DNA of 64,000 nt from contig OZ223209.1 in NCBI GenBank assembly GCA_965140415.1, positions 293,974 through 357,973 on the forward strand. The letters run 5' to 3'. The position numbers and the translations under genes are program-made. Under the pieces are notes generated by a model. That model searched no databases. It had not been told where the DNA came from and saw only the letters and a list, made by a program, of their open reading frames with translations. Shown here piece by piece: positions 1-64,000 of this stretch; within the stretch, counting starts at the first letter, position 1; every line of letters begins with the position of its first letter. Origin of the DNA: Myxococcota bacterium. Lineage in GTDB: Bacteria; Myxococcota_A; SURF-8.

Positions 1-1
1 T

Positions 2-1207: not shown

Positions 1208-1472
1208 TTCTTTACTGGGTATCGAGCGAATTTGGCGATACCTATCGCGATGTCATTTTATAACGACGAGACGTGAGTCCGGCTAAAAACGTCAACAATA
1301 ACGCTGGGCTTACGCACCACTGCCACAGAATTCAGAAAACATCTATCGCCAAAACCGATTACGAAAGGTTGTCTCGCGATACTTGAAATCATCAATTAAT
1401 ACTTTACAGCCAAGTCCAGATCGAACATACTCACGAACTGACTGGGAGTAGACCTGTTTCGGAGGATAAGCG

Positions 1473-4265
1473 ATGAAAGAGAAACGCTGGTTGGTAAAGG
1501 TTGTGTTGTTGTGTCTGGCTCTGATGCTATTCGGCTGCGGTTCCGGTTCCGATGCGGACCCCGCAGACGGTGATAGCGATACGGATGCGGCGACCGGCAG
1601 CTGTCTGCCCTTCTGCATGCGCGTGGTGGCTTGTGCGCCGGAAGTCGGCATCACGACCGCAAAATGCACCGCAGCCTGTGAAGATCCGGAATACTGGTTC
1701 TCCACCGTGGGCGGCACGGCCAGCTATTGCTGTGTCGAAAAGAGCGATTGCGACAGCTTCGTCGCCTGCCTGTTGGGCACGGATGGCTACCTCTGCGGGC
1801 AGACCGGCCCCTCCGGCGACTGCACCAACGGCGAGATGAGCTGCCAGGGTGACAGCACCATCGAATGCGAAAACGGCTCCTGGGCCGATCCCATTCCCTG
1901 CGGCGAAGGCAAAACCTGCAAAGATGGCGACTGCGTCGACAAAACCGTAACCAACGATTGCGAAGCGGACGTCGAAACCCGTTGCAAGGACGAAAACACC
2001 CTGCAAACCTGTAATGCCACCGGCGACGGTTGGGTGGATTCCGCCTGCGGCGACGATCTGTTCTGTTCCAACGGCCAGTGCGTCTCCCAGTTGTGCGAGC
2101 CGGAAACGGAAAAAAGCTGCGACGATCAGGGGCGCGTGGTGACCTGCAACGCCGCCGGCGATGGCTGGGAAGATCCCACCGAATGCTTGCAGGGTCAACG
2201 CTGCTTCGAAGGCCGCTGCATCAACGAGGGCGAATGGGTCTGTGAACCGCTTACGGAAACCCGCTGCACCGACGACGATCCGCCACGCCTGCAAACCTGC
2301 AACGCCGACGGCAGCGACTGGTCCACTCCGTTGAACTGCCCGGCGGGCACCGAGTGCATCGTCGATCATTGCGCCGAAGCGGCCTGCGAGCCGGGTGAGG
2401 ATTTCCGCTGCGCCGAGGATGGCCGCATTCAGTGGTGCAACACTTCCGGCAACGGTTACCTGCCGCCGGAAGACTGCCCCAGCGGCCTGACCTGCGTTAC
2501 CAATTCCGAAGACGGCTGCGGCGTTTCTACCAGTGTCTGTACGCCCAATGAATATTACTGCGAGGATCTGCACAACATCAAGCAATGCAACGCCACCGGC
2601 GACGGCTACCTGACGGGCCTGACTCCCTGCGATCCGAACTCGGTCGAAGGCAAGGAATGCCACAACGGCGAATGCATGGATCTGTGCGACATGGCCGAAG
2701 CCACCGATTCCTACATCGGCTGCGAATACTGGCCCATCGCCCTGCCCAATTCAGTGGACGACGACTTCAAAGAAGGTCAGGAATCCGAATTCGCGGTTGT
2801 CGTGGCCAATACCAACGAGGATTATACGGCGACCATCACCATTGAAAAAGGCATTTTCAACAAGGTCGTAACGATCCAGCCCGGCCAGCAAAAGACCATC
2901 CGCCTGCCCTACGATGACCGCGTGAACAGCTACAAGGCCAATTCCGCGTTTCGTTTGAGTTCCACCGTACCAGTTACGGTTTACCAGTTCAATCCGCTCA
3001 CCGCCGTGATCGGCTCCACCTACGCCAATACCAATGATGCTTCGCTGTTGTTACCGACTCACGTACTCGGCGAAGAGTATATGGTTATGAACTATCGCAC
3101 CTGGTATCGCTCCGCCGACAACATCACGTTTTCTGCCAGTAATTCTTTCTACACCATCGTCGGCACCGAAACCGGTACAACCGTTACGATCAAGCCTTCC
3201 GGTGAGACGGCTTCCGGCAGCGGCGTGCAGGCCATGTCACCGGGACAGGAATACACGTACACCTTGAATCGCGGTGAAGTATTGCAAGTGATCAGCAGTT
3301 CGGACAGCAGCCTGATCGATCAGAGTACCTGCGTGACGGAATCGAGTCCCTATACCACGATTAAGCAATACTGCCTGGGGCAGGAACTGACCGGAACGGA
3401 AATTCATACCAGCGCACCGGTGGCGGTTTACGCCGGTAACGAGTGCGAATTCGTGCCACATTATCGCTGGGCCTGTGACCATCTGGAACAGCAGATGTTC
3501 CCGACCGAATCCTGGACCACCCAGTATATCGCCGCCAAAATGCACACGCCGCTAAATACCGGCAGCACCGAGCAACCTAACCTGTATAAGATCGTCGCCT
3601 TGCAGGATGAAACGGTCATCACTACCGTACCGGAAGTCAATAACCAGTCCAGCCCCTTCCACAATCAGGCCTGTACCGGTCCTTTGGATCGCGGCGAGAG
3701 CTGCATCATCGAAACGCGCGACGATTTCATCCTGATGACCAACGCCGAGCATCCGGTGATGATCGGCCAGTTTTTAGTTGGACAGGATTTCTGGGGTATC
3801 AATTTAGTACCCTGTTACGCCGGTTGCGGTAGTGGTGAAATCTGTTACGATGCCGGTGGCTATTGCGTGCCTTCCTGCCAGGGTGGGTTACAATGCCCCG
3901 AAGGTAAGATCTGTCTGAACAACATGTACTGTATGGGCTACGGCGATCCGGCCTTCGTGCTGATTCCGCCGGTGGAACAATATCGCAAAGAATACGTATT
4001 CCTGGTACCCAGCACCTACGCCATCGATTATCTGACGCTGTTGACGACAAATCCTTCGGTGGAAATCACGCTGGACGGTTCGCCCTTGCAGACCAGCTTC
4101 ACGCAGATCGGCAGCCGCAACGCCTATCGCATGGAGATGAGCATCTCCGATGGTGCGCACACCTTAAGCGCAAGCAGCAAGGTGGGCTTGATGGTTTACG
4201 GCTACGACGCATATGTCTCTTACGCCTATCCGGGCGGACTGGATCTGTCGCTGGTGATCTACTAG
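1473..4265 (+). CDS. Cys-rich tandem-repeat lipoprotein with C-terminal beta-rich domain (IgGFc-binding/vWD-like)
   Basis: Signal peptide and lipobox (LMLFGCGSG), Asp-rich linker, then ~8 tandem ~40-aa repeats (C..C.D...TCNA.GDGW.D..C..G.C). C-terminal ~500 aa ends VYGYDAYVSYAYPGG, which I recall as IgGFc-binding-like. Confidence 0.55.
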   Translation: MKEKRWLVKVVLLCLALMLFGCGSGSDADPADGDSDTDAATGSCLPFCMRVVACAPEVGITTAKCTAACEDPEYWFSTVGGTASYCCVEKSDCDSFVACLLGTDGYLCGQTGPSGDCTNGEMSCQGDSTIECENGSWADPIPCGEGKTCKDGDCVDKTVTNDCEADVETRCKDENTLQTCNATGDGWVDSACGDDLFCSNGQCVSQLCEPETEKSCDDQGRVVTCNAAGDGWEDPTECLQGQRCFEGRCINEGEWVCEPLTETRCTDDDPPRLQTCNADGSDWSTPLNCPAGTECIVDHCAEAACEPGEDFRCAEDGRIQWCNTSGNGYLPPEDCPSGLTCVTNSEDGCGVSTSVCTPNEYYCEDLHNIKQCNATGDGYLTGLTPCDPNSVEGKECHNGECMDLCDMAEATDSYIGCEYWPIALPNSVDDDFKEGQESEFAVVVANTNEDYTATITIEKGIFNKVVTIQPGQQKTIRLPYDDRVNSYKANSAFRLSSTVPVTVYQFNPLTAVIGSTYANTNDASLLLPTHVLGEEYMVMNYRTWYRSADNITFSASNSFYTIVGTETGTTVTIKPSGETASGSGVQAMSPGQEYTYTLNRGEVLQVISSSDSSLIDQSTCVTESSPYTTIKQYCLGQELTGTEIHTSAPVAVYAGNECEFVPHYRWACDHLEQQMFPTESWTTQYIAAKMHTPLNTGSTEQPNLYKIVALQDETVITTVPEVNNQSSPFHNQACTGPLDRGESCIIETRDDFILMTNAEHPVMIGQFLVGQDFWGINLVPCYAGCGSGEICYDAGGYCVPSCQGGLQCPEGKICLNNMYCMGYGDPAFVLIPPVEQYRKEYVFLVPSTYAIDYLTLLTTNPSVEITLDGSPLQTSFTQIGSRNAYRMEMSISDGAHTLSASSKVGLMVYGYDAYVSYAYPGGLDLSLVIY

Positions 4266-4292
4266 CCGACGATACCTCATCGTAAACGTAAC

Positions 4293-4327
4293 GAAGGGAG
4301 CCGCAACCGGCTCCCTTCTGCTTTTAT
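4293..4327 (+). terminator. Rho-independent terminator between convergent genes
   Basis: Perfect 11-bp stem GAAGGGAGCCG/CGGCTCCCTTC with loop CAAC, followed by TGCTTTTAT; 28 nt after the stop of the 1473-4265 gene. Confidence 0.6.
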
Positions 4328-4364
4328 GGCATTCGGCGAATGGATTCGAAGCAACCGGTCGCAG

Positions 4365-6023
4365 TCAGTGATGATTTGACCGTTTCAGGCTTTCCAGATA
4401 GGCTCTGATTTCTTCATCCGGTCGATCCGCTTCACCGGGCTCTTGCAGCAGATCTTCCAGCACCGAGACGGCCTGATTCGTTTCACCCTGCGCCGCCAGG
4501 GCCTGGGCAAGGTGGAAACGGAACATGCCATGAGGCTGAATCTCATAAGCCTTCCGGAACAGGATCTGGGCCGCCGCAGGATTTCCCTGCTTGAGTTGAA
4601 TCCGACCGCAGACACTATTCGCGTTCGCCAGAAATTCACGATCGGTTTTCGTCCATGCGCGTTCCGATCGCAATGCGCTATCGATTCTGGGTAACATTTT
4701 TACGCACTGCTTCTCGGCGGCCTCGATCAACCGGTGTTCCGACAACCACGTGGCCAATGTGACATCGACGCGCAAAGTGGCCCTATCGCTCATCGAGTCG
4801 GCAGCAAAGAGCGTGCCGTCGCCCTGCCAGTCCAGCGATCGCAGATGAACTTTTGCGCCCCAGATGAGTGAAAGCAGGATCACAGCGGCAAAAGCGAGCC
4901 TGGCGATCCGCCGATTAGCTTGTACCTGTTGCAAACCCCAAGCCAGCAACAGCATGACGCCGACCAGCGGGAGATGAAGAAAACGGGGAGCGAAAATGCA
5001 ATAGGCCAGTATGACCATGTTGGAAGCCAGGCTCAAGGTGGCCGGATACCAGAGCATCATCCACAGATGGCCCGGTTTCTTTTTCCAGACCTTCCATGTA
5101 GCAAGTGCGTATGCAAGCAACAACAGCAGCGCAGCGCCTCCCTGCCAGGCAGGGGGGATTCCGGTTACCGGATAGGTGAAGTCCGCTCGAGCACCGGCGA
5201 ACCCGCTGAGATGCATCAGATAATTCAATTGAAGTCCGAGAGCGGCCCACCAGGCTTCAAGTCTCGGAAGTTCATGCAGTTGATTGTCCACCAGAGGCAC
5301 CTGGCTGCCTTCGAAAGCACCGAAGAGCAGCCTCTGATAAAGCAGGTAGGCCAAGGCGACTGCAATCAGTGACAGCGTGCAGGCTGCTTGAGAGGCAATG
5401 CGCCCGCCCTTTCGTTGGTCGGGAAACCAGATGAGGGCAAGGGCCGGAACGATCAACGTGATTCCGTTTTCCTTGGCCAGGATGGCGCAGAGATACAATA
5501 GGGCAGCCGCCAGTGCCACACGCTTGCTTGCTTGCGGAAATTTCAACAAGACAATAACAAGCAGCAGAGCGAAAATCGTACATAGAATTTCCGCTCGTCC
5601 GACGACGGGATTCACGTTTTCCGCCAGTACGGGATGCAATAGAAAAAGCAGGCTACAGGCAAAGGCCGGGATTCGATCGAAAAAGCGCCGCGCCAGCAGG
5701 AAAAGCAAAAAGGCCGAAAGAGCGTGCAGCAGAATATTGTTCAGTCTGAAGACGAAGGGATTGAAATCGAAAATCTGCTTCTCGAGCATGAAACTGGCCG
5801 TGGTCAGCGGCCTGAAAGTCCGGGCATAGGTGAACCAGTTGCTACTCAGCAGGTCCGACCATTGAAGCTCCGCAACCGTTGGGTTGTTAAGCAGCGCTTC
5901 ATGGTCATCGAATACGAAATTCCCGGATAAGGATGGAAAATAAGCCGCCATGGCACAAACGAGCAGGACAAACAGAATGAAAATGTTTGTACGAGCAACT
6001 TGATCACCGGAATAACTGTCCAA
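4365..6023 (-). CDS. TPR-repeat integral membrane protein (TMTC/PMT-like putative glycosyltransferase)
   Basis: Multi-pass membrane N-terminal region with YFPSLSGNFVFDDHEALLNNP motif and C-terminal TPR repeats. The listed ORF start (6257) is a translated intergenic repeat; the likely start is the TTG at 6021-6023 with a GGAAGGGG SD (alternative ATG at 5951). Confidence 0.5.
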   Translation of the reverse strand: MDSYSGDQVARTNIFILFVLLVCAMAAYFPSLSGNFVFDDHEALLNNPTVAELQWSDLLSSNWFTYARTFRPLTTASFMLEKQIFDFNPFVFRLNNILLHALSAFLLFLLARRFFDRIPAFACSLLFLLHPVLAENVNPVVGRAEILCTIFALLLVIVLLKFPQASKRVALAAALLYLCAILAKENGITLIVPALALIWFPDQRKGGRIASQAACTLSLIAVALAYLLYQRLLFGAFEGSQVPLVDNQLHELPRLEAWWAALGLQLNYLMHLSGFAGARADFTYPVTGIPPAWQGGAALLLLLAYALATWKVWKKKPGHLWMMLWYPATLSLASNMVILAYCIFAPRFLHLPLVGVMLLLAWGLQQVQANRRIARLAFAAVILLSLIWGAKVHLRSLDWQGDGTLFAADSMSDRATLRVDVTLATWLSEHRLIEAAEKQCVKMLPRIDSALRSERAWTKTDREFLANANSVCGRIQLKQGNPAAAQILFRKAYEIQPHGMFRFHLAQALAAQGETNQAVSVLEDLLQEPGEADRPDEEIRAYLESLKRSNHH

Positions 6024-6179
6024 TACAAAGTCCCCTTCCCTCGGGTTGCTTGTTTCTCGCTGGCCGCTTTTCGATGAGTTATTATAACGTAGAAGCGCAG
6101 ATGGAATCCAAGTATTATTCACACGCTTCACCGGCTGGGCAGCATCACAAGAAGTTGCAAACCTGTATGATTTCTGGGT

Positions 6180-6259
6180 GGCGCGGGCTAAGCCGCAGAC
6201 TTGCCCGTGGTCATCAAGAGCCACATGGGCATGCTCCGTTTCACTTCGCTTGGCCAATG
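6180..6259 (-). repeat. REP-like ~80-bp hairpin repeat, copy A
   Basis: Reverse complement aligns with copies at 28510-28586, 34038-34111 and 54709-54786; shared core GCTTGCCCATGTGGCTCT...GGCAAG.CTGCGG.TTAGCCCGCGC. Confidence 0.6.
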
Positions 6260-6388
6260 ATTCCCGTTTTCAAAGCCAATCGCAATATCTTGTGATGCAC
6301 CCTAACCACTTGAAGAAATATGGAAACTCTTGACAATCGGGGGCTTGCGGGTAATCGTGTCCTTTCCGTCTTAGGGAAAGGATTCAAG

Positions 6389-7366
6389 ATGTTCCGTTGT
6401 CTGTTGTTCTACCGTTTCTTCCTGCTTTGTCTTTCCATAACACTACTGCTGTTGGGCTGCCACTCGGATGACTCTCCTTCATATGAAGGCGATGATTCCG
6501 AATGGGATGAATCTTCCGATGGTGACCTGGATCTGGAAGCGGAACCGGATATCGAACCGGAAGCAGAGAGCGCACCAACTCCCCGGCGCTGCAATGGGTT
6601 TACCGAATTGTGCGAGCGCCGCTATAACGAAGTCGCCTACGCCACCAGCCACAATGCAATGAGCAACGAACAAGATGGCTGGGTGGCTGCCAATCAATAC
6701 CTGCCGATTCCGCGTCAATTGCAAGATGGTGTTCGTGGCTTCATGCTGGATGTCTATCTTTATGAAAACGAATTGCACCTTTGCCACGGCGACTGCCTGT
6801 TCGGAAAGATTCTGCTGCGTGATGCGCTGCAACTGTTCAAGGATTTCATGGACGAGAACCCGAACGAGATCTGTACCTTGATACTGGAAAGCTATGCAGA
6901 CAGCGACGCTATCTTTGCCATGTTTGAGCAAGTTGGGTTGTCCTCCATGCTGTTTCGGAAATCGGAGGAAAATGACTGGCCGAGTTTAAATGAGATGATC
7001 GATGCGGAAACCCGCTTGGTCGTTTTTACAGACGATCAGACGTCAACGGTGCCGGACTTTCATTATGTCTGGGATTATTGCTGGGACACACCATGGCAGG
7101 TGATGGAGCAGGAAGATTTCACGTGTCGAATTCTACGCGGCGACCGGCAAAACGAGTTGTTCATCCTGAATCACATCCTTTACGGCGCTTTCGATTTACC
7201 CGATGCGACTAAAGCCGAACAAGCCAATAGCAATCCGTTTTTCCTCTCACGCGCACAGCAGTGCCAGCAAGAAAGCGGCCAGCTACCCAACTTCATCACG
7301 GTCGATTTTTATTCGCTCGGTAATCTGTTCGATGTCGTTGACGCATTGAATGGCGTGCAACACTAA
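6389..7366 (+). CDS. Secreted lipoprotein, PLC-like phosphodiesterase (PI-PLC X-domain-like)
   Basis: ATG at 6389 with GGAAAGGA SD; signal peptide and lipobox (LLLLGC), D/E-rich linker, then CNGFTELCERRYNEVAYATSHNAM...LHLCHGDC, which resembles PLC-like phosphodiesterases. Confidence 0.4.
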   Translation: MFRCLLFYRFFLLCLSITLLLLGCHSDDSPSYEGDDSEWDESSDGDLDLEAEPDIEPEAESAPTPRRCNGFTELCERRYNEVAYATSHNAMSNEQDGWVAANQYLPIPRQLQDGVRGFMLDVYLYENELHLCHGDCLFGKILLRDALQLFKDFMDENPNEICTLILESYADSDAIFAMFEQVGLSSMLFRKSEENDWPSLNEMIDAETRLVVFTDDQTSTVPDFHYVWDYCWDTPWQVMEQEDFTCRILRGDRQNELFILNHILYGAFDLPDATKAEQANSNPFFLSRAQQCQQESGQLPNFITVDFYSLGNLFDVVDALNGVQH

Positions 7367-41539: not shown

Positions 41540-42697
41540 ATGAGCAAGCGCTTGCATCTGGATTGCACGGGCGGCATTGCCGGAGATATGTTTATTTCCG
41601 CTCTCACCGGCTTGCCCATGGATATCGAAGCCTGGTGGGAGATCATGGATCGTCTGCCGCTGCCGGAATGGGAAGCGTCGTTTCCGGAGCGGTCGGAATG
41701 CGGCTTGATGTGCCGTACTTTGAAATTGACGTTGCCCGGCGGCCCCGGCGACCCGCGCGACGTGCGCTCGATCCGGCAGACCATCTTACAAGCCAAGCTG
41801 CCTTCCGAAGTGGAAGAGAATTCGTTGGCGCTATTGCAACTGCTGGCCGAAGCCGAAGGCAAGGTGCATGGCGAAGAACCGGATCTGGTTCATTTTCACG
41901 AACTGGCCGGATTCGATTCCATCTTCGATCTGGTCGGTGCGGCGGCGGCGGTGCATCTGCTGCAGCCGGTGACGATCAGTTGCTCGTCGTTGCCATTGGG
42001 ACACGGTACGGTGCAGACCGCGCACGGCGAATTGCCACTGCCGGTTCCGGTGGCGCTGGAACTGCTCGATGGCCTGCCGGTGCATCCGGTTGATATTGCA
42101 GGTGAAACCATTACCCCCACCGGGGCGGCCATTGCGCGTCATTTTGCAGGTTCCTTTTCCACTTTTGCCCAAGGTGCGATTCTGGCTCACGCCCAAAGCG
42201 CCGGGACAAGAAAGAATGCGCGTATTCCCAACATGCTGCGCGCCATCTTATTGGAGGAAGACGCCGGGGATTCGGAAACGCTGTGGGTATTGGAATGCAA
42301 CCTGGACAATATGAATCCCGAACATACGGATTTTCTTTTCGCCCGCCTGTTCGAAGCCGGGGCGCTGGATGTCTGGCTCAGTTCGATTCAGATGAAGAAA
42401 AACCGCCCGGCCCAGACCGTTTCCGTTTTAGTGCGCCCGAATCTGGCCGACGAGATGCAGCGGCTGCTCTACCTGCACACACCGACAATCGGTGTTCGGC
42501 GCTTTGCGGTGCAGCGTCATGCTCTTAAACGCAGCGAGGAGTTCCGTGAAACTCCATTGGGGACCGTGCGCGGAAAGCGCATCGACGCACCAGACGGTTC
42601 ACGCTGGATGCCGGAATACGATGAACTGGCTCGTATCGCCTCAGAGCGCGGCTGGTCGATTCGTCAGGTGTTGGAAGCGCTTTCAGCCACGAGCTAA
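41540..42697 (+). CDS. larC: LarC-family nickel insertion protein (DUF111)
   Basis: N-terminal LHLDCTGGIAGDMFISAL, central HFHELAGFDSIFDLVGAAAA and TPTGAAI blocks. No larB or larE seen in the window. Confidence 0.7.
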   Translation: MSKRLHLDCTGGIAGDMFISALTGLPMDIEAWWEIMDRLPLPEWEASFPERSECGLMCRTLKLTLPGGPGDPRDVRSIRQTILQAKLPSEVEENSLALLQLLAEAEGKVHGEEPDLVHFHELAGFDSIFDLVGAAAAVHLLQPVTISCSSLPLGHGTVQTAHGELPLPVPVALELLDGLPVHPVDIAGETITPTGAAIARHFAGSFSTFAQGAILAHAQSAGTRKNARIPNMLRAILLEEDAGDSETLWVLECNLDNMNPEHTDFLFARLFEAGALDVWLSSIQMKKNRPAQTVSVLVRPNLADEMQRLLYLHTPTIGVRRFAVQRHALKRSEEFRETPLGTVRGKRIDAPDGSRWMPEYDELARIASERGWSIRQVLEALSATS

Positions 42698-43720
42698 AGG
42701 CGGGTTTTCGAATGATGCATAGCGGGAAGCGGCGGACTCGAAACGGTCGTCCAGTCCCGCTGCCGCCTGCAAGGCACGTCGTAGGAAATACCCACGCGCG
42801 GCTTCATCCTTTCTCATATGAAAAAACAACGCCGTCTGAACTCCGAAAATGAATCCGTAATAGTTCAGTTTGCTTTTGTATTTGGGCGGGAAAGAGCGCT
42901 GCGCCTCGTAGCCGTCGTGAATGAGTTGATAGAAATCCGCTTCGTGTACGTGGGTGTATAGCGAGCAGATATCGACCAGTGGAGATCCGGCGGCGGCCTG
43001 GGTGAAGTTGACGAACCCGGTGATTTTTTTCTGCTCTCGATCTACCCATAGATTGGCGAACTGCAAGTTATTGTGCGTCAGTCCCAACGATTCCCCGATC
43101 ATCACCGATTTAGATTTCTCACCGAATTCCAGTAGTTGCTGGACCAACCCTTCATCGAGCATCTGGCTGGCCTGCACGTGTTTCATGACCGTATCCGCCA
43201 TCAAACCAAAATACTTCTGCCAGGGGCCTGGATGCACCCCGTTGCCTTCGACTGAAATCAGCCCGGCACCTTTGACCTGAATGGAATGGATACGCGCCAG
43301 AAAGCGGCCAATCTGTTCTCCGATTTTCTCTTTTTCATCATTCGAAAACGAATCACCTGCGGCATAGCTGCGTGCAATCGGTTCGCCGTCGATTTTCTGT
43401 ACAACCAAAGCGGGGCGCTCCACAAACTCGCTGTTGGACTCTACCCCAATCGGCCTGGTCAGCGGAACGTGCAGGTTCAAATCCAACGTGGAACGATTGA
43501 AGCGATCCAGTTGATCGAGAATGTTGTATTCCCGGTGAAGGATGGTAAAGTCACGGTTTTTCGGTTCCGCTTTCAGAATTTTGACCCAATAATCACCAAC
43601 CTCGTAGGTATCGCAGGCCGGATCGATCGGAACGCCATGAACCTGTTCCGGATCGGTTTCAAAATCCGATTTGAATTTCTGTATGAGTGAGATCAGATTT
43701 TCGGCGTTCGCTTGACTCAT
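42683..43720 (-). CDS. Aminoglycoside-phosphotransferase-fold protein, possibly a pseudokinase
   Basis: ATG at 43720 with GGAGGAA SD. Kinase-like fold; catalytic-loop position reads THNNLQFANLW and the metal-binding position reads FVNFT (Asn where Asp is expected). 3' end overlaps larC convergently by 15 nt. Confidence 0.5.
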   Translation of the reverse strand: MSQANAENLISLIQKFKSDFETDPEQVHGVPIDPACDTYEVGDYWVKILKAEPKNRDFTILHREYNILDQLDRFNRSTLDLNLHVPLTRPIGVESNSEFVERPALVVQKIDGEPIARSYAAGDSFSNDEKEKIGEQIGRFLARIHSIQVKGAGLISVEGNGVHPGPWQKYFGLMADTVMKHVQASQMLDEGLVQQLLEFGEKSKSVMIGESLGLTHNNLQFANLWVDREQKKITGFVNFTQAAAGSPLVDICSLYTHVHEADFYQLIHDGYEAQRSFPPKYKSKLNYYGFIFGVQTALFFHMRKDEAARGYFLRRALQAAAGLDDRFESAASRYASFENPPLARG

Positions 43721-43998
43721 GGGTTCCTCCATCGGCGTATTGATCGATGCTGAAACTGTAACAGAGAATGGGCGTTGACGCACCTTCTTTTCGCAGTTGA
43801 ACATCTGCGTTACACCAAACCCACAGCGGCAATTGACACGCATTCCCGGTCATGTTACCTTTATGTGTAAGGCGTATCATCACGGTTTTGTATTGCACCG
43901 AATCGCCAGGAATTCCGAGCCGTTTCCGCTCTGCAAGTGGAGCGGTCCTTTGTTTTGCCTTTCGAACCATTCGGCAGGCACGCCACGATGAGGATAGC

Positions 43999-52889: not shown

Positions 52890-53819
52890 TTATTGCTGGT
52901 TGAACAAGGGAGTGGAAAGATAGCGCTCGCCGTTACTTGGAATGATAACGACGATCAGCTTGCCTTTCATGTCCGAGCGCTGCGCCAGCTTCAACGCGGC
53001 GGTGACGTTGGCTCCCGAACTGATGCCCGCCAGAATGCCCTCTTCCTTGGCCAGGCGCCGCGACATTTCGAAGGCTTCGTCATTGGTTACGGTAACGATT
53101 TCGTCCACCAGATCCATTTGCAGCACGTCCGGAACGAATCCTGCACCGATTCCTTGGATTTTGTGCGGTCCCGGCGTTCCGCCCGACAAAACGGGAGAAT
53201 CCGTCGGTTCTACGGCAACAGCCAGCAAACCGGGTTTGCGTTCCTTCAATACCTGGCTCAATCCGGTAATCGTGCCGCCGGTACCCACTCCGGCTACAAC
53301 GACATCCACCTGGCCATCGGTGTCTTCCCAGATTTCTTCGGCGGTAGTGAGGCGATGCGCTTCCGGGTTGGCGGGATTCGCGAATTGCTGCGGCATGAAA
53401 TACTTTCCGGGATCTTTGGCTGCAATCTCCTCGGCTTTGGCAATCGCGCCCTTCATGCCTTCGCCACCCGGTGTCAGGATGATTTCCGCCCCATAGGCCT
53501 TGAGCAGTAAGCGTCGTTCCTGGGACATCGTCTCGGGCATGGTAAGAATGCAACTGTAGCCCTTGGCGGCGGCAACGAAGGCCAGTGCGATACCGGTGTT
53601 TCCAGAAGTCGGTTCGACGATGGTCATCCCGGCTTGCAGGCGACCATCGGCTTCTGCGGCGGCAATCATGTTGCTGCCGATACGATCCTTTACACTGCCT
53701 GCCGGATTGTAATATTCCAGTTTAGCCACGATTTTGGCTCCGGCATTATAGGTGATCCGATTCAGTTTCACCAGCGGCGTATGGCCGACTAACTCCACGA
53801 CATTGTCATATATTTTCAT
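52890..53819 (-). CDS. cysK: Cysteine synthase A (O-acetylserine sulfhydrylase)
   Basis: ATG at 53819 with AGAGGAA SD; PLP-lysine block [10 protein letters not shown] and [10 protein letters not shown] signature; ~310 aa. Confidence 0.9.
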
Positions 53820-53896
53820 AACGGTTCCTCTTTGTTTGACTGTGGTTGCTTTTCCCACATGCAAATCGTAGCGATACGATTCAAGACAGTTTTCAC

Positions 53897-54346
53897 TTAG
53901 ATGTAATACATGTTTTCCTGGCTGTTTTGAGCGTGTAGCTCAAGCTGTCGATTGGCTACATCGGCCAAGCTGCGATTTTCGAGAATGTTGCTGATGGCGT
54001 CGTGAACTTCGTCCCACAATTCATGTGTCGCGCAGCGCCGCACAAGACGACAGGGATGGTTGTCATGGCTACACTCCACCGGGGCAAGCGACCCTTCCAG
54101 TGCCTGCAAAATGGTGGAAATATAAACTTCCTCCGGAGGGTTGCTCAATCGATAGCCGCCACGCGCACCACGCACACCCAGCACCAATCCGGCAGCCCGT
54201 AGCGGTGTTACCAATTGTTCCAGATACTTAAGCGATACCATTTGCCGACGGGCGACATCTTTAAGCAGCACCGAACCTTCGTTGTAATGAATTGCCAGAT
54301 CCACCATAGCACGTAGACCGTATCGACCGCGAGTTGAGAGCTTCAT
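53897..54346 (-). CDS. Rrf2-family transcriptional regulator (CymR/IscR-like)
   Basis: N-terminal [18 protein letters not shown] and [11 protein letters not shown] winged-helix signature; directly upstream of cysK. Confidence 0.8.
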
Positions 54347-57015: not shown

Positions 57016-60000
57016 TTACTGGCAGTAACTCTTTTCCGGATAGGCCGCGCAGCAATGCGCCTGCACGTCGAAAGCGGTCACGTCTTCCCATAAGCCCAGG
57101 TTGTAGAAGTAGTCGCACAGATGCTCGGAACGGCAATAGGGCACAAAGCTTTCATCCGTCTCGGCACGGGTGTGCATCGGGGGTGGTGTGAAACCCGGTT
57201 CTCCATCCAGTTCGATGAAAATCGGATTGCTTACGGCGAACGATGGCGTCCAGGGATAGGTCGGATACAGATCCTCCATGGCGTCGCCAAAAGCGAAGAC
57301 CACCGCGTAGGCGTCGTGGCCGTTGGTGCGGCTGACGTTGGTAGCAAAGCTGCGATTCATGCGCACCGGAGCGGAAACGCTGCCGGGAACCATGTGGTTA
57401 CTGTCCATCGGGTAGCCGTTGATGCAGACATAGATGTGATTGACTTTGACGTAAGGCGGCGCCTGTACCTTGACGTTGAACTCCAGGCGCACCGAATTTT
57501 CCGTACCCGGCGGCGTGTAGGTGTCGCCCGGCAAGGCATTGCCTAAACGCATGGTGACGGTGGGACCGGTGGTCACGATGTTATGTCCCTGCCCCAGACG
57601 CAGAATCTGATCGAGGGCTGAATTGGGCGAAAGCGTTTCCTGATCCGAAATCACCAAGTTGATCGGTGAGCCGATGTGCCGGAAGTCTTCTTTGGAAGCG
57701 GCTTGCAGCTCGCTATTGGCAGTGATCGGTTTGTAGTAGCCCTGATGCAATAAAGAGAGCCAATCCTGAATGGCCGCATACGTATAAGCAAAGGGCTCCT
57801 CGCCGTTGATCACCTCCATGGTGTCCCAGTTTTCCATTTGGCTGCGCACCAGAAACTGCAAGGAATCGATGCCCTCGAAAGGATCGTAACCTTCCGATTT
57901 TCCAAACACATCGAAAAAGGCTGGAGCGTCTTCCACGCCGCGCGGACGGCTGATCTGTACGAAGCTTGCGCCGTAGTTTTCTTTCAACTGCTGCCAGATT
58001 TCTCCCGGCGGCTGCAAGCCGGCATACGTGCCGTTTTCCTGATCGTAGGCCGTAGACCAGACCCCGGTATATTCCGGGCTATCCTGCGGTTTCAGTACAT
58101 TTACGCCAAGATATTGGCCGTTATTGGAAGTGATCTGCATGCCCGGTACCCAATGCACTGGATGCGCACCGCCGCTGGCCCCGGTTTCGGAAAGCGCCTC
58201 GGTATAGTCGCCGATGGTCTCCGCGTCGGAGCCGACAAACACTTCCACGCCCTCTGCGCGCAGGTTGTTCACGCGCTCGGTTTTCGTCATATCCGAATAA
58301 AGCGAAGCGTTACTGTGAATGTTCAGATCCGCCGTATGCAGGTACATGCCCGCTTCGCCGGGCGGCATTTCGATCGTGGGATCGACGATGCGGCGTAACA
58401 CGACGTTTCGTGGTCCCTGCTTTTCGCCATCGCCCAGATACGCGCGATAGGTGTGCTGCTCCGCGCAGACCGAATAATGGATGCCGCAGGAAACCACTAC
58501 CGAATACTGGCTGTTGACGGCCCCTCCCAACGGCAGACGCACCTGAATTTCTCCCGGCGTTTCGGTGGTAAAGACCGTTCGTTCAATCGGAATGTTGCCC
58601 GGCATGGAGCCGGTCGGACCGAAGTCCAGTAAACCATGATAAAAGTCCACCCGCGCTCCCAGCGGGAAAGTGCCTTCGTCGCGCTCTTCATTCACCGAAA
58701 TGGTTACGACCGCGCCACGCGGCGGAGCGGGAACTTCCAGCCCCTGCAAGGATTCTTCCTCTACCACCGTGACGTCCAGTGCATCGGAACGTTCGCCCCA
58801 AGGAGCGACAGTAACCAGGTGCCAGTCTCCGGCGGGCAACTGCAATTCGAATGCGCCCTGCGCGTCGAGGTAGCTGCTGGCGTGGATGTAGTCGTGATAT
58901 TTCGGGTTTTCCGCGCTGCCGCCGATTTTTCGCGTTTCGATGGCGATGATTTCCACTTCCTGCGCCTGTAAATCCACACGGTCGCTGAAATCCACCGTCC
59001 CAGAAACCGAGCTTGTTGCAACAACTTTGTTCGGAAGGCTTTCTTCCCGGAAAGCCTGCATATCGGCAAAGACCTGTTCCGCCGGACCTTCGCTGATCAT
59101 GAATACCAGCGATTGCGTGTTGGGGGCGATCTCGGTAACGGCAAAGTCTTGATATCCAAGGATAAATGCCGGTTTGGGCAGCAGCATCATGGAGAACAGG
59201 TTTTTGGCTTCACCGGAAGTGACCGCATAGGAAAAGTCCGATTTGCTGAAGGCGTAATAGGGATGATAGTAGCCCTGGAAACTGCGTCCGCCATCGAAAA
59301 TGGCGATGCCGTCCGTATCCTGGCCCGGATAAAAGGGAGTCAGGCTCGAATCGGTCATGACGCCCAACCCGGGACGCACGTATTCCAGTGTCAGATCCAC
59401 CGGGTCGATATCGATTTCTGCGGTTTCCGTACCCGCCTCTTCCATATCCAGATCGCCATCGGCGTCCTGCGGCTGCTGATAGATGGAAACCGTCATGTCC
59501 ATGCGTAGGTAGGTGGCATCGGCATCCAGGTAATAATCCACGGTTAATGCCACCTTGGGATTGATGGGCGCGGCGAGCATGTTGTCTACCTGCTGAATCG
59601 GCCAGTCGATGCCGCTGGCGCGCACGTGTGCCGGGAAACCGCCCGAACCATTGTGAATCAGTTCGATTTTATCGGCGCGGAACATATGGATATTGCCGTC
59701 GTAGGGGAGCACGTCGGTATTGGAGCTGATCACCGGGAAAGCGTCGAACAGCAGGTCTTCGGTGCGCGTATCGCCGTTACTGTCGAGCAGCACCGCGTCC
59801 AACAACGAACCGCCGGTCAAATTGAAACCGCGACCAGGCCCGGCTGCGGCGATGACGAAGGCTGCCTTGCTGTTATACAGTTTGAAATCGCCCACCTGCC
59901 CCTGGCCATCGGAGGCCGGAAGCTGGCTGCGTTCGCCCACCACACCCGCACGGACTTCGCCGTCCTCCAGTGCGTCGCCGACATTCAAAGGCGTGGTGTC

Positions 60001-60231
60001 GTTGGGATCGCCAAGATCCGTATCGGTGTCGAGATCGCCGTCGTTCTCCGAATCCGCGTCTTCGACATCCGCGTTTTCATCGTCGCCGTCGGTGATGACG
60101 TCGTCGCCATCGGTGGGCGGCTGATAATAGGTCGTATCGTCGTTACAGGCGAAAACGAAGAGCAACACGACAAGAAGAACGATCGCTGCAAAAGGATAGT
60201 ACAACGTTCCTTTTAATTGAGAATGGATCAC
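57016..60231 (-). CDS. Large secreted lipoprotein, hypothetical (possible metal-dependent hydrolase-like region)
   Basis: Signal anchor and lipobox (FVFACNDD); long D/E-rich linker; 1071 aa; HTADLNIHSNASLYSD segment weakly resembles PHP/amidohydrolase metal-site motifs; Cys-rich C-terminus. Confidence 0.45.
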   Translation of the reverse strand: MIHSQLKGTLYYPFAAIVLLVVLLFVFACNDDTTYYQPPTDGDDVITDGDDENADVEDADSENDGDLDTDTDLGDPNDTTPLNVGDALEDGEVRAGVVGERSQLPASDGQGQVGDFKLYNSKAAFVIAAAGPGRGFNLTGGSLLDAVLLDSNGDTRTEDLLFDAFPVISSNTDVLPYDGNIHMFRADKIELIHNGSGGFPAHVRASGIDWPIQQVDNMLAAPINPKVALTVDYYLDADATYLRMDMTVSIYQQPQDADGDLDMEEAGTETAEIDIDPVDLTLEYVRPGLGVMTDSSLTPFYPGQDTDGIAIFDGGRSFQGYYHPYYAFSKSDFSYAVTSGEAKNLFSMMLLPKPAFILGYQDFAVTEIAPNTQSLVFMISEGPAEQVFADMQAFREESLPNKVVATSSVSGTVDFSDRVDLQAQEVEIIAIETRKIGGSAENPKYHDYIHASSYLDAQGAFELQLPAGDWHLVTVAPWGERSDALDVTVVEEESLQGLEVPAPPRGAVVTISVNEERDEGTFPLGARVDFYHGLLDFGPTGSMPGNIPIERTVFTTETPGEIQVRLPLGGAVNSQYSVVVSCGIHYSVCAEQHTYRAYLGDGEKQGPRNVVLRRIVDPTIEMPPGEAGMYLHTADLNIHSNASLYSDMTKTERVNNLRAEGVEVFVGSDAETIGDYTEALSETGASGGAHPVHWVPGMQITSNNGQYLGVNVLKPQDSPEYTGVWSTAYDQENGTYAGLQPPGEIWQQLKENYGASFVQISRPRGVEDAPAFFDVFGKSEGYDPFEGIDSLQFLVRSQMENWDTMEVINGEEPFAYTYAAIQDWLSLLHQGYYKPITANSELQAASKEDFRHIGSPINLVISDQETLSPNSALDQILRLGQGHNIVTTGPTVTMRLGNALPGDTYTPPGTENSVRLEFNVKVQAPPYVKVNHIYVCINGYPMDSNHMVPGSVSAPVRMNRSFATNVSRTNGHDAYAVVFAFGDAMEDLYPTYPWTPSFAVSNPIFIELDGEPGFTPPPMHTRAETDESFVPYCRSEHLCDYFYNLGLWEDVTAFDVQAHCCAAYPEKSYCQ

Positions 60232-60398: not shown

Positions 60399-61574
60399 TT
60401 ATCCGCAAACGGAAGTTTGTGCAAATAGATAGTTGCCCATGCGTAACAGTCCCCGGATATCGTGGATATCTTCGTTGAAGATCGGAACGCAGGCGATTTT
60501 CTCTCCGCCTCCAAGGGCCTTATCCAGGCGTTCCACGTTCTCTCGGGCAATGGAATTCAATTGTTCGGCAACCTGCTTCAATCCTGCCAGTTTATCCACC
60601 AGACCGGGTAGACTCTGTTGCATACCCGGTTCGCTTTCAACCACCTGCTTGATGCTTTCCCCATCGAAAAGCGTTGCAAGTTCCTCTGGCTTGGGAACCA
60701 GTTTTTCCGATAATTCGAAGGCGCGGTTAACGATTACCGCCTCCAGCGGAATGTCGGCTTCGACCAGTTTATTGTGGAAATACAAGGCTTCGGATAAGGC
60801 ATTCTGCTCGGCGCTGGTGACCAGTACGAAAACGGTAGAGGAATTGCGCAGTAATTCGTTAACTTTGCGTGCGCGTTCGGCAAAACCTTCCGTCAAGCCG
60901 GTCATCGCCTGGAAGAAGTTCGTCAGATCCTGGATGAACTTGTCTCCCACCAATAATCCCAATAACTTGAAGACGACCTCGCCTCCCTTGTGAAACAGCA
61001 GCGAACGCATGCTTTTCTTGGCCGGTTGCGTAAACCATTTGACGACGTTCTCGTCTAAAAAGGAGGCCAGACGACTGGGAGCGTTCAAGAAGTCGAGTGC
61101 ATTCTTCGTCGGCGGTGTATCGAGCACCACCAGGTCGTAGTCACGCTGCTGCATCAGTTCGTACAGACGCTCCATGGCGACATATTCCTGCGAACCGGCG
61201 ATGGCGTTGGTAAACTGGCGGTAAATCATGGTATCGGTGATCTGCTTCTCTTGCTTTTCATCGCGTGCAATGCGCCGGATCAGGCTATCCAAGCTGGCCT
61301 TGGTGTCCAGCATGGCTGCCCACAACGACCCTTTGACCTCTACCCCGGCATCCACGAAACGATCCATGGGTACCTGGCGTTCCTCGTTGGTAAGTCCTTC
61401 CAAACCAAGCGATTGCGCCAGACGGCGGGCCGGATCGATGGTGATAACCATGGTTTTTTTGCCGCTTTGAGCAGCGTGCAAGGCGATAGCGGCGGAAGTG
61501 GTTGTTTTGCCGACTCCACCGGAGCCGCAACAAACAACCAGTTTACGATCCTGCAACACTCGGTTCAATTTCAT
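60399..61574 (-). CDS. ArsA/GET3-family P-loop ATPase
   Basis: N-terminal deviant Walker A VVCCGSGGVGKTTTSAA and ArsA-type blocks (ITIDPARRL, DTPPT); overlaps the upstream paralogue by 4 nt. Confidence 0.75.
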   Translation of the reverse strand: MKLNRVLQDRKLVVCCGSGGVGKTTTSAAIALHAAQSGKKTMVITIDPARRLAQSLGLEGLTNEERQVPMDRFVDAGVEVKGSLWAAMLDTKASLDSLIRRIARDEKQEKQITDTMIYRQFTNAIAGSQEYVAMERLYELMQQRDYDLVVLDTPPTKNALDFLNAPSRLASFLDENVVKWFTQPAKKSMRSLLFHKGGEVVFKLLGLLVGDKFIQDLTNFFQAMTGLTEGFAERARKVNELLRNSSTVFVLVTSAEQNALSEALYFHNKLVEADIPLEAVIVNRAFELSEKLVPKPEELATLFDGESIKQVVESEPGMQQSLPGLVDKLAGLKQVAEQLNSIARENVERLDKALGGGEKIACVPIFNEDIHDIRGLLRMGNYLFAQTSVCG

Positions 61575-62539
61575 GAGGTCGCCTCCGCCGGAGTTTGCAA
61601 CAACTGCTGAGCCAGCCGTTGCAGAGCGGAAACATCCAATTGTCCGATCAGCAGACGCGGCAGGGTGACAAGCGTCAAGCCGACGCGCTCGGATAAGGTT
61701 CGCAGGTGGCCGTCGCAGCGCCGTTGACGATCCAGGGCGGCGGCTCCCGCTTCCAGGGCGGATTGCAGATCCTGGGTGTGAAAGTCGAGCTGGCTTAACT
61801 TGTCAAGCAGGTTCTGCTCGTCGCGGTTGAATGTACGTTCGCGCACGCCGTTGACGAACAGCAGGCCCATGTTCATTGGAACTCGTTTCTTAAGATTTTC
61901 ATACAGTTCGATGGTTTCCGTTACCGGCATCTCTTCAGGTAAAGTCACTAAGTTTAGCAAGGTGGTGCGTGCATCACTAAAGAGTGTTTCATAGCGCTTC
62001 AAAATGCGCGACAGAGCACCGACACCGACCAGTTGCTGCAACATCTGTGGCGTTTGCAAAAATGACAAGGCGTGACCGGTTGCCGGAAGATCGACCAGGA
62101 TCACGTCGTATTGCGGCATCCGTGTGCCCGGTTCCCGCTCTTTTAGCAGGTTGTACAGTTTGTTGATGGAAACCAGTTCGTTGACCGCCGGAGCGGTTTT
62201 GAAGAAATACTGCAAGACGGAATTTTTACGGATCAGATCGGCAACCATCTGCAACCTGACGTGTTGCTGGATGTATTCGGCCAGCGCCTCATCCGGGTTG
62301 ATGCTGATCGCCCAGACATCGTCGAGCATTTCCATTGGTTCGAAGCCGACGAACGGCACGTTGAAAATACGTTTCATGCTGCTTTCGGTATCGATTTCCA
62401 CGATCAGGGCGCGCTTGCCCATATGCGTTGCCGCCAAGGCCAAACTGGCCACGACGGTGGATTTTCCCACGCCGCCTTTGCCGGTGAAAAACAGCAAGCG
62501 ACGCGTGAAGAGATCCGAAATCTGCAATTGTCCGTTCAT
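61571..62539 (-). CDS. ArsA/GET3-family P-loop ATPase (paralogue)
   Basis: LLFFTGKGGVGKSTVVASLA Walker A; same family as the downstream gene, so a tandem pair. Confidence 0.75.
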   Translation of the reverse strand: MNGQLQISDLFTRRLLFFTGKGGVGKSTVVASLALAATHMGKRALIVEIDTESSMKRIFNVPFVGFEPMEMLDDVWAISINPDEALAEYIQQHVRLQMVADLIRKNSVLQYFFKTAPAVNELVSINKLYNLLKEREPGTRMPQYDVILVDLPATGHALSFLQTPQMLQQLVGVGALSRILKRYETLFSDARTTLLNLVTLPEEMPVTETIELYENLKKRVPMNMGLLFVNGVRERTFNRDEQNLLDKLSQLDFHTQDLQSALEAGAAALDRQRRCDGHLRTLSERVGLTLVTLPRLLIGQLDVSALQRLAQQLLQTPAEATS

Positions 62540-62667
62540 ATTCTGGTTCCTCTTTCATTCGAGCCGTGGATTATACTGTATTGATCGATCTTCTTAAAGT
62601 AAAAAGTCTGCAAATGAAGTAATTCCTTGTTTTTCATACGGAATCCAATTATAATCAAAAATTAACA

Positions 62668-62970
62668 ATGGGTTTGTTGAAAAAGCTCGGAGATCTCCCC
62701 ATGCCCAAAAAGAAAGATTTCGTGTTCTCGCTGTCCGCTTCGAACGACATCATCGCCGATCATCTGGAGGCTCTGGCACGAGGATTTCGCTCGGGTGAGA
62801 TTATTCTGGCAATGAACGAAAAAGAACTGGCTCTACAACCGATACAAGATATTGACCTGGATTTGCATGCTAAAATCGACGGTATTCACCAATCCGTTTC
62901 GTTTTCGATGCACTGGTATTCCAAAACAGGGGAAAAACCGGACCTGAGCATCCGTTCCGGGAAGGATTAG
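62668..62970 (+). CDS. Small hypothetical protein (amphi-Trp-domain-like)
   Basis: 100 aa; FVFSLSASNDIIADHLEALARGFRSGEIIL...SFSMHW resembles the amphi-Trp pattern as I recall it; divergent from the ArsA pair. Confidence 0.35.
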   Translation: MGLLKKLGDLPMPKKKDFVFSLSASNDIIADHLEALARGFRSGEIILAMNEKELALQPIQDIDLDLHAKIDGIHQSVSFSMHWYSKTGEKPDLSIRSGKD

Positions 62971-63029
62971 CAGTTGGTGTGACAACGGCAGTGAACGTGA
63001 AAAAGCAGGCGAGGGAACTGGTTACTCAG

Positions 63030-64000
63030 ATGGTGGGTGCGGTTCGTTCTCAATTGCGAACGGCGGTCGCCGCTTTTGTGGATCGCGACTCCCAACTGGC
63101 CAACACCGTCATTGAGCGTGACGACTACATCGACAATCTCTACGTTTACACCGAAGGAAAAATCTTCAAACTGATGACCGGCTGTTCCGATGAAGCCCGG
63201 CTGGCCGTGTTGCGGACATCGTTGAAGATGGCCAAAGGTATGGAAAAGATTGCCGATTATGCCGAAAACCTGGCCAAGCAGGCGCTCTATCTTCCTTCCG
63301 GTCAATCCGACGAAATGGAACTGGACATTCAGCACTGCTACGAGCAGGTTCGAGAAGGACTCGATCAGGTTTTGAAGGGCTTTTTGAAGCTGGATGCCAA
63401 AACCATCGTGCGCGCTGCGAAAAAAGAAGCTGCGTTGGATGCGCTTTATGCCGATCTGCTGCGGCGTATCATCCAGCGTTTGCGTGAACCGGGCGCGGAT
63501 GTAGATATGCTGATTACGGAAATGTTTGCCGCCAAGCACATGGAGAAGATCGGCGATATTATTCTGGATATGTCCGAAGAAATTCTTTCGTTGATCTATG
63601 GCGAACGGTTGAAGGTGCACCAGGTGCTGCACATGGATGACCTGGCGAATGCACGCGGAAAAGCCAGCTTCAACACCGAGGGCATCTGGGGAACGCGCAG
63701 CGGTGCTTCGGTGTTTAAACTGGGAGTCAATGGCAAAGAAGAATATATCTACAAAGAAGGCACCCCAGCAAAAATCAATCGTGAAATCGAGCGTTTGAAA
63801 AAGTGGAACGAAATCGAGCCCGGCCTTGTACCGGAGGTGCAGTCCACTAATTCCGATCAAGTCAACGGACGCGAAGTGCTGGTTACCAATTATTTCCATG
63901 GGGTGACTCTGAAAGATCTGTACGAAAATTTCGAGTGGTCCGCCAAAAAGCGCGTGACATTGCAGTTGCTACAGTTATTGGAGCGGATCTGGGAAAAGAC
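63030..64000 (+). CDS. PhoU-domain protein fused to a protein-kinase-like domain (3' end outside the window); not in the ORF track
   Basis: Frame open from about 62970 to the window end; two PhoU repeats (DDYIDNLY...MEKIADYAENL and MEKIGDIILDM) then a kinase-like region (GTRSGASVFKL, EYIYKEG). Start codon uncertain (ATG 63030 or an upstream GTG). Confidence 0.5.
   Translation, partial: MVGAVRSQLRTAVAAFVDRDSQLANTVIERDDYIDNLYVYTEGKIFKLMTGCSDEARLAVLRTSLKMAKGMEKIADYAENLAKQALYLPSGQSDEMELDIQHCYEQVREGLDQVLKGFLKLDAKTIVRAAKKEAALDALYADLLRRIIQRLREPGADVDMLITEMFAAKHMEKIGDIILDMSEEILSLIYGERLKVHQVLHMDDLANARGKASFNTEGIWGTRSGASVFKLGVNGKEEYIYKEGTPAKINREIERLKKWNEIEPGLVPEVQSTNSDQVNGREVLVTNYFHGVTLKDLYENFEWSAKKRVTLQLLQLLERIWEK

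Follow-up and report, generated by a model that had tools for sequence, protein, structure and literature searches.

Near the end of a 64,000-nucleotide stretch of a Myxococcota bacterium genome (contig OZ223209.1, positions 293,974 to 357,973; the whole 64-kb stretch is hereafter called the window), two adjacent genes for ArsA/Get3-class ATPases diverge from a gene for a small amphi-Trp protein and a gene that encodes a PhoU domain fused to a kinase. Taking the evidence together, we are confident that this region consists of two independent transcription units, one encoding a BagA/BagB-type ATPase pair and the other derived from a conserved gene neighbourhood, the GAK system (presumably an acronym of Grasp, Amphi-Trp and Kinase), and that the AT-rich divergent spacer is common to the two only in this lineage. 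Included in this joint and well-supported assessment is that the amphi-Trp/PhoU-kinase pair is the persisting part of the widely conserved GAK neighbourhood, the form found in this clade being a minimal two-gene variant. The PhoU-kinase/amphi-Trp module is real and is conserved across many bacterial phyla, and the small amphi-Trp protein is an obligate partner of the kinase, as evidenced by an amphi-Trp gene somewhere in the locus in 58 of the 60 fully flanked loci. The ATPase pair is ordinary and widely distributed. The four open reading frames (ORFs) that an initial annotation of this DNA had described were all found in the ORF list at the same coordinates; with one further gene and the spacer, the features are as follows:

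62979..64000, plus strand: PhoU/APH-fold kinase fusion, residues 1–340 of 549 within the window (PF01895, E = 1.3e-27)
62701..62970, plus strand: amphi-Trp domain protein, 89 aa (TIGR04354; alternative start ATG 62668, 100 aa)
62540..62700, no strand: AT-rich divergent regulatory region (GC fraction; putative -10 boxes)
61571..62539, minus strand: BagA-like ArsA/Get3-fold ATPase, 322 aa (PF02374, E = 2.9e-30)
60399..61574, minus strand: BagB-like ArsA/Get3-fold ATPase, 391 aa (PF02374, E = 1.3e-34)
57016..60231, minus strand: predicted lipoprotein, 1,071 aa (ORF list; 167 bp downstream of the BagB-like gene)

The PhoU-kinase fusion and its GAK neighbourhood

The fusion gene starts with GTG at position 62979, 8 nt after the amphi-Trp stop codon, and is open at the window end. 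A full-length copy of 549 aa (P0001), which is 100% identical, is present in the source genome. Because P0001 is complete in that genome, the fusion is not a window-edge or assembly artefact, a possibility that the initial annotation had named among its refutations, and the PhoU-kinase architecture is genuine. In addition to PhoU, P0001 matched PF01636 APH (32.9 bits vs the cut-off of 23.2) and PF02958, while the NCBIfam scan returned no specific model for a PhoU-APH kinase, only general PhoU and APH(3') models at scores below their cut-offs. An AlphaFold model of the fusion, generated with a 13-sequence alignment, had a predicted local distance difference test score (pLDDT) of 89.3 and a predicted template modelling score of 0.76. 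Foldseek comparison of this model showed that residues 4–207 form a six-helix bundle with template modelling (TM) scores of 0.84–0.90 to the PhoU crystal structures 1sum, 4q25, 2i0m and 1t8b, and that residues ~230–540 form an APH-fold kinase. Structures nearest to the latter are those of APH(3'), of choline/ethanolamine kinases and of macrolide phosphotransferases (TM ~0.6), with which it mostly shares 12–21% sequence identity. Among the 13 aligned members, which are 27–48% identical to P0001, the invariant residues include K259 (the beta-3 Lys), E269 (the alpha-C Glu), the segment H410-G-D412-x-N-x-x-N417 and the Mg-binding D431; the PhoU E/D-xxx-D-type motifs are invariant as well. Judged from the alignment and the predicted structure, the catalytic apparatus of the kinase is complete, and the enzyme looks active.

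The extent of the family was established in two ways. A scan of species-representative genomes with the alignment of 13 PhoU-kinase proteins yielded at least 312 relatives, and a hidden Markov model (HMM) search of 1.84 billion representatives yielded 321 clusters (50% identity) at E <= 1e-30. Nearly all of these clusters are ~530–560 aa in length and the matches listed are mostly end-to-end; the family is compact and well defined. A word-indexed protein search had understated the kinase family with only 14 homologues, and the count was corrected by the genome scan and the exhaustive HMM search. The relatives span Desulfobacterota, Myxococcota, Planctomycetota, Nitrospinota, and Alpha- and Gammaproteobacteria. 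The initial annotation had called the architecture unusual; this stands in the sense of uncommon but not in the sense of rare, since at least 312 species-level genomes carry a PhoU-kinase. The PADLOC defence library produced no match for the kinase, and a reading of the locus as a defence system was rejected, as PADLOC gave weak P-loop noise only.

The identification of the small protein as an amphi-Trp protein was borne out, with the ORF at 62668–62970 scoring 36.9 bits against TIGR04354 (cut-off 31) and 26.1 bits against PF20068 (cut-off 27). The length of 100 aa originally assigned to it is probably too great. The start is most likely ATG 62701, giving a protein of 89 aa: the database copy (P0135; 89 aa, 100% identical) begins there, a GGAG Shine-Dalgarno sequence is located at 62688–62691, 9 nt before this ATG, and the usual length in the family is 89–97 aa. 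The window protein represents a divergent subtype in which the invariant Trp and the hydrophobic pattern are kept and the E-S-x-Q-D motif is missing. Among the amphi-Trp copies upstream of kinase genes, ~80% have the Ser and Asp of this motif, and in a sample of 36 members the proportion is at least 90%; the proteins of three related loci (L001, L003 and L005) resemble that of the window in retaining the Trp without the motif. A single-sequence AlphaFold model of the protein reached a pLDDT of 58, which did not suffice for a fold search; among solved structures, no relative was obtained with a profile built from 36 amphi-Trp proteins, and the word-indexed protein search returned no amphi-Trp homologue besides P0135 itself. 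The only mention of an amphi-Trp protein that the literature yielded is in a proteomics table for Dissulfuribacter thermophilus (PMC13490349), where it ranks with the most abundant proteins of one growth condition; at least one member of the family is hence highly expressed.

For the analysis of gene context, 80 loci with flanks of up to 10 kb were combined with four examined earlier, giving 84 PhoU-kinase loci in addition to the window, and neighbouring genes were identified by all-against-all clustering of ORFs and by NCBIfam scans. With an iterated profile, 60 of 85 loci were found to have an amphi-Trp gene directly upstream of the kinase gene in the same orientation, and all 36 amphi-Trp neighbours that were sampled matched PF20068. 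In most lineages, the first gene downstream of the kinase gene is that of the GAK ATP-grasp enzyme (TIGR04356, 459 bits; present in 72 of 80 loci). The next encodes HprK-related kinase B (TIGR04355, 312 bits), which was found in 64 of 76 loci, and a GAK CofD-like gene (TIGR04357, 528 bits) is present in 30 of 70. Upstream of the kinase, genes for an XXXCH-domain protein (TIGR04358) and for an unnamed 394-aa family were observed. The GAK system is a label of NCBIfam/TIGRFAMs, defined computationally, that covers TIGR04354 (amphi-Trp), TIGR04355, TIGR04356, TIGR04357 and TIGR04358. The near-constant presence of the PhoU-kinase in GAK neighbourhoods is new from this analysis and is not an annotation.

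Across the family, the context of the kinase is rich in kinases, phosphatases and phosphate-transport genes. In 15 of 68 loci, a pstB gene (TIGR00972, 405 bits) is located upstream, and ~10 loci have in addition a stand-alone phoU (TIGR02135, 197 bits) just before the cluster, sometimes together with a PhoB-like regulator; a GAK-type cluster directly after pstB and stand-alone phoU was recorded in L009, L013, L018, L027, L044, L045, L049, L068 and L073. This adjacency links the GAK system to phosphate transport and signalling. As a genuine stand-alone phoU is present beside the fusion gene in those ~10 loci, the fusion adds a paralogue and does not take the place of PhoU. The phosphatase-type neighbours comprise metallophosphoesterase, histidine phosphatase and SixA-Nudix proteins. 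A second architecture occurs in Gamma- and Alphaproteobacteria (L054, L060 and L065–L084), with genes for Nudix, PhoU-kinase, ATP-grasp, HprK-related kinase B, SixA-Nudix and phosphatases (histidine phosphatase and metallophosphoesterase); the amphi-Trp gene comes last in this operon instead of preceding the kinase gene.

The ATPase pair, its lipoprotein neighbour and the spacer

The description of the two ATPases as paralogous members of the ArsA/GET3 class with a 4-nt gene overlap proved accurate: both match PF02374, and the overlap, ATGA, can be read in the sequence (minus strand ...ACC TCA TGA / ATG AAA). The 391-aa ATPase scored 303.7 bits (E = 1.9e-90) against NF053621 (BagB) and 67.9 bits against NF053622 (BagA), and the 322-aa ATPase scored 136.6 bits (E = 1.2e-39) against BagA and 47.4 bits against BagB. 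Since both scores are under the NCBIfam equivalog cut-offs (521 bits for BagB, 400 bits for BagA), the proteins are, by sequence, BagAB-type homologues at the level of the orthologous group, with no equivalence certified. The best matches among solved structures were the two chains of PDB 6bs3, chain B (Rv3680) for the 391-aa protein (8.8e-62) and chain A (Rv3679) for the 322-aa protein (1.7e-24). The BagB-like P-loop reads VVCCGSGGVGKTT and lacks the lysine that marks a deviant Walker A motif, and the aligned P-loop of Mycobacterium tuberculosis reads VVCCGAGGVGKTT; the core is GSGGVGKTT here vs GAGGVGKTT in M. tuberculosis, within the wider pattern VVCCG[S/A]GGVGKTT. In the 322-aa ATPase, the deviant Walker A motif is canonical (TGKGGVGKST) and the switch motif reads DLPATGH; the aligned BagA P-loops read GKGGVGKST here vs GKGGTGKST in M. 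tuberculosis. In the window, in L001 and in four additional BagB-like loci that were compared (L085, L086, L087 and L088), the BagA-like gene is upstream of the BagB-like gene, which is the order in M. tuberculosis as well. At least 7,964 matches at E <= 1e-20 show how large the ATPase family is.

ArsA is one fused polypeptide of ~580 aa with two homologous halves, encoded beside arsB, arsR and arsD, and in Get3 two identical subunits are joined through a zinc site with a CXXC motif. Both identities were considered and rejected. For an ArsA arsenical pump, two separate genes are present here and the scores against TIGR04291 (63.7 and 74.5 bits) are far under the cut-off of 650; for a classical Get3/TRC40, there are two distinct subunits, and direct inspection located a CXXC in neither translation. 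Pfam library scans of the genes between 41.5 kb and the window end matched none of the ars families. The view of the initial annotation that arsenic resistance is unlikely is hence upheld. According to Hu et al. (2019) and to Whitaker et al. (2020), both cited through PMC10597346, M. tuberculosis BagAB is a 'bacterial Get3-like' heterodimeric ATPase that protects mycobacteria against glycerol/methylglyoxal and nitric oxide toxicity. By homology with BagAB of M. tuberculosis, for which a crystal structure exists, the two ATPases of the window would form a heterodimeric ATPase, and their genes are probably translationally coupled; any mechanism proposed for the pair is borrowed from BagAB by homology.

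Directly downstream of the ATPase pair, the 1,071-aa protein carries a predicted signal peptide ending ...VFAC followed by NDD, an Asp/Glu-rich acidic linker and a weak match to a CehA/McbA-type (PHP-type) metallohydrolase domain (NF038032, 52.8 bits vs the cut-off of 80). Homologues of 960–1,080 aa are encoded directly downstream of the ATPase pair in L001 (1495–4737), L085 (8219–11386), L086 (8206–11388) and L088 (8226–11111). Identity to these homologues is 34–37% over ~1,000 aa in three of them and weaker in L088, and all have lipobox-like N-termini; L087 is the exception, without such a gene directly after the ATPase pair. The conserved neighbour of the ATPase pair in this clade is hence the lipoprotein gene and not the divergent genes, and it is probably co-transcribed as the third gene of the ATPase unit. 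Its association with the pair provides a small lead on partners of BagAB-type ATPases.

Elsewhere in the window, a gene for an Rrf2-family regulator (53897–54346, minus strand) was seen directly upstream of a pyridoxal phosphate-dependent (cysteine synthase-like) gene (52890–53864, minus strand); in L085 a PALP gene also lies near the lipoprotein gene, which hints at local synteny with relatives. A stand-alone APH-family phosphotransferase of 386 aa (42683–43843, minus strand; PF01636, E = 2.8e-14) is encoded ~19 kb from the fusion and adjoins genes for a LarC-type nickel insertion protein and a B12-binding radical S-adenosylmethionine protein.

The spacer between the two units agreed with its earlier description as a 128-bp AT-rich divergent region. 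It extends from 62540 to 62667 with a GC fraction of 0.31, compared with 0.54 for the window, and falls in the lowest 0.4% of 128-bp windows. A candidate promoter toward the ATPases was located on the minus strand (TTAAGA-16-TATAAT, 62597–62570, with the TATAAT at 62575–62570), and a candidate -10 box toward the amphi-Trp/kinase genes was located on the plus strand (TATAAT, 62650–62655). The repeat search of the spacer identified only these two opposed TATAAT boxes (inverted repeat I2), and the promoter scan of the spacer found one site vs 2.0 expected from shuffled sequence, so that the promoter call is not significant.

Linkage of the two units and alternative explanations

The initial annotation implied that the four genes make up one functional unit and proposed neighbourhood conservation as a check. 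When the ORFs of the 84 loci and the window were searched, the ATPase pair and lipoprotein gene were found near a PhoU-kinase gene only in the window and in its closest relative, L001 (kinase 49% identical); the linkage with the divergent genes is not kept in other genomes, an outcome that the initial annotation had listed as a refutation, and the implied unit was not sustained. The gap between the units in L001 is ~860 bp and holds another called ORF. The genome that contains both L003 and L087 has the two units on a single 1.2-Mb contig, separated by ~540 kb, and in the SURF_8 metagenome each unit occurs on a separate contig. Because the linkage is confined to the window and L001, and because the units lie far apart in a relative, we regard them as independent. 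At least 10 transposase-fragment genes (DDE_Tnp_1, DDE_3 and rve) were observed upstream of the amphi-Trp/kinase pair in L003 (positions 1–6564); the arrangement suggests that a rearrangement broke the synteny in that genome. A single four-gene system, in which a heterodimeric Get3-like ATPase would act as chaperone of a client or target it, under the control of the PhoU-kinase and the amphi-Trp protein, is accordingly very improbable in our judgement. It would account for the AT-rich spacer common to both sides, with -10-like boxes on both strands, and for the recurrence of the neighbourhood in L001, but the units are not adjacent in the other 82 PhoU-kinase loci or in any of the four additional BagB-like loci, and neither the interrupted gap in L001 nor the distance of 540 kb in a close relative fits such a system.

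The reduced gene content of the second unit raises a separate alternative. A neighbour-joining tree calculated for 83 kinases placed the window together with L001, L003 and L005 as a distinct clade, and these four loci have only the amphi-Trp and kinase genes of the GAK neighbourhood. Profiles of nine GAK-neighbourhood families matched nothing in the whole 64-kb window, the CofD-like and XXXCH proteins among them; a profile of 60 ATP-grasp orthologues found none in the window, the ATP-grasp gene was also absent within 8–10 kb in L001, L003 and L005, and HprK-related kinase B was absent from the window and from the same three loci. The pair could therefore be a decaying GAK remnant without a function of its own in this lineage, a reading that we consider improbable. 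The absence of ATP-grasp, HprK-related kinase B, CofD-like, 394-aa-family and XXXCH genes from all four loci, the many transposase genes flanking L003 and the loss of E-S-x-Q-D from the amphi-Trp protein are in keeping with decay, but all catalytic and PhoU motif residues are kept, which is the pattern of purifying selection, and the four genomes form a clade of their own in the kinase tree. Since four genomes with kinases only 45–49% identical to that of the window have kept the two genes intact and closely coupled, we favour a functional two-gene unit over decay. A further alternative concerns the kinase itself, which might be an antibiotic-resistance or small-molecule detoxifying phosphotransferase (aminoglycoside/macrolide) with an incidental PhoU-like domain. 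The best structural matches are indeed APH(3') and macrolide phosphotransferases, and there is a weak match to the APH(3') model NF033068; but its 44.2 bits compare with a cut-off of 205, NF033059 gave 24.1 bits vs 400, and identity to the structural matches is in the low range given above. The conserved context, moreover, is related to phosphate and phosphoesters (pstB-phoU, phosphatases, ATP-grasp and HprK-like genes), not to resistance or mobile elements, and members of the family are encoded on the chromosome, in environmental anaerobes and in marine bacteria. We hence rate a resistance function as a very slim prospect.

Possible function and comparison with known systems

How PhoU transmits phosphate status is still debated. 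If the amphi-Trp/PhoU-kinase pair is a functional unit, its PhoU bundle might report phosphate status in the way that stand-alone PhoU does with PstB and PhoR, and would gate the fused kinase, which is predicted to be catalytically competent. The target of the kinase could then be the amphi-Trp protein itself or a small phosphorylatable ligand in combination with this protein, so that the amphi-Trp protein would be either a substrate or an adaptor. Such a phosphate-responsive kinase switch is offered as a tentative proposal that is possible rather than probable. As to the role of the amphi-Trp protein, we lean toward an adaptor or regulator over a protein substrate, because the nearest folds of the kinase are small-molecule kinases and because the amphi-Trp proteins of the window clade have no conserved acceptor. 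It is equally speculative, and we would not yet call it likely, that the amphi-Trp protein and the PhoU-APH kinase constitute the irreducible core of the GAK system and a second PhoU-based phosphorylating phosphate sensor apart from PhoR/PhoB. If this were true, the window clade would offer a minimal pair that can be studied without the accessory ATP-grasp, HprK-like and CofD-like enzymes.

Several observations weigh against parts of this interpretation. No pst genes were noticed among the genes between 41.5 kb and the window end, the part that was checked, and the pstB-phoU adjacency is seen in only about a fifth of the loci. The likeness of the kinase to small-molecule kinases (APH and choline kinase) counts against a protein substrate, and the absence of E-S-x-Q-D, with its Ser and Asp, from the window clade leaves a conserved phospho-acceptor unsupported there. 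The window ends inside the kinase gene, and the lack of downstream GAK partners is extrapolated from L001, L003 and L005. For the ATPase unit, both proteins score under the equivalog cut-offs (303.7 vs 521 and 136.6 vs 400), and co-transcription of the lipoprotein gene is assumed across a 167-bp gap. A literature search returned nothing relevant on PhoU-APH kinases, amphi-Trp proteins or the GAK system. The GAK neighbourhood has curated NCBIfam/TIGRFAM models, yet in the library searched no paper refers to them or to the system, and the two-gene form is a convenient experimental entry point to that neighbourhood. A PhoU bundle fused to an intact kinase likewise provides a handle on what a PhoU domain senses and on how an enzyme is controlled by it.

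Compared with known systems, the ATPases share with ArsA and Get3/TRC40 the P-loop fold family, as evidenced by matches to PF02374 and TIGR00345. They are closer to BagA/BagB of M. tuberculosis (Rv3679/Rv3680; PDB 6BS3–6BS5), which they resemble in being adjacent paralogous genes, in gene order, in reciprocal best matches (each protein to a different chain) and in the asymmetry of the P-loops, and from which they differ in their sub-cut-off scores, in a host that is Myxococcota-like and not an actinobacterium, and in the ~1,000-aa lipoprotein gene downstream. The fusion resembles canonical PhoU of the pstSCAB-phoU system in the two-repeat six-helix bundle of its N-terminal 210 residues and in the E/D-xxx-D-type motifs, whereas it differs in being joined to a kinase of ~320 aa and in scoring 90 bits against TIGR02135, for which the cut-off is 130. 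In relation to the GAK system, the window clade is distinguished by the lack of the ATP-grasp, HprK-related kinase B, CofD-like and XXXCH genes; it is tied to that system by an amphi-Trp protein that passes TIGR04354 and by a kinase whose orthologues are encoded directly upstream of the GAK ATP-grasp in the great majority of loci (72 of 80).

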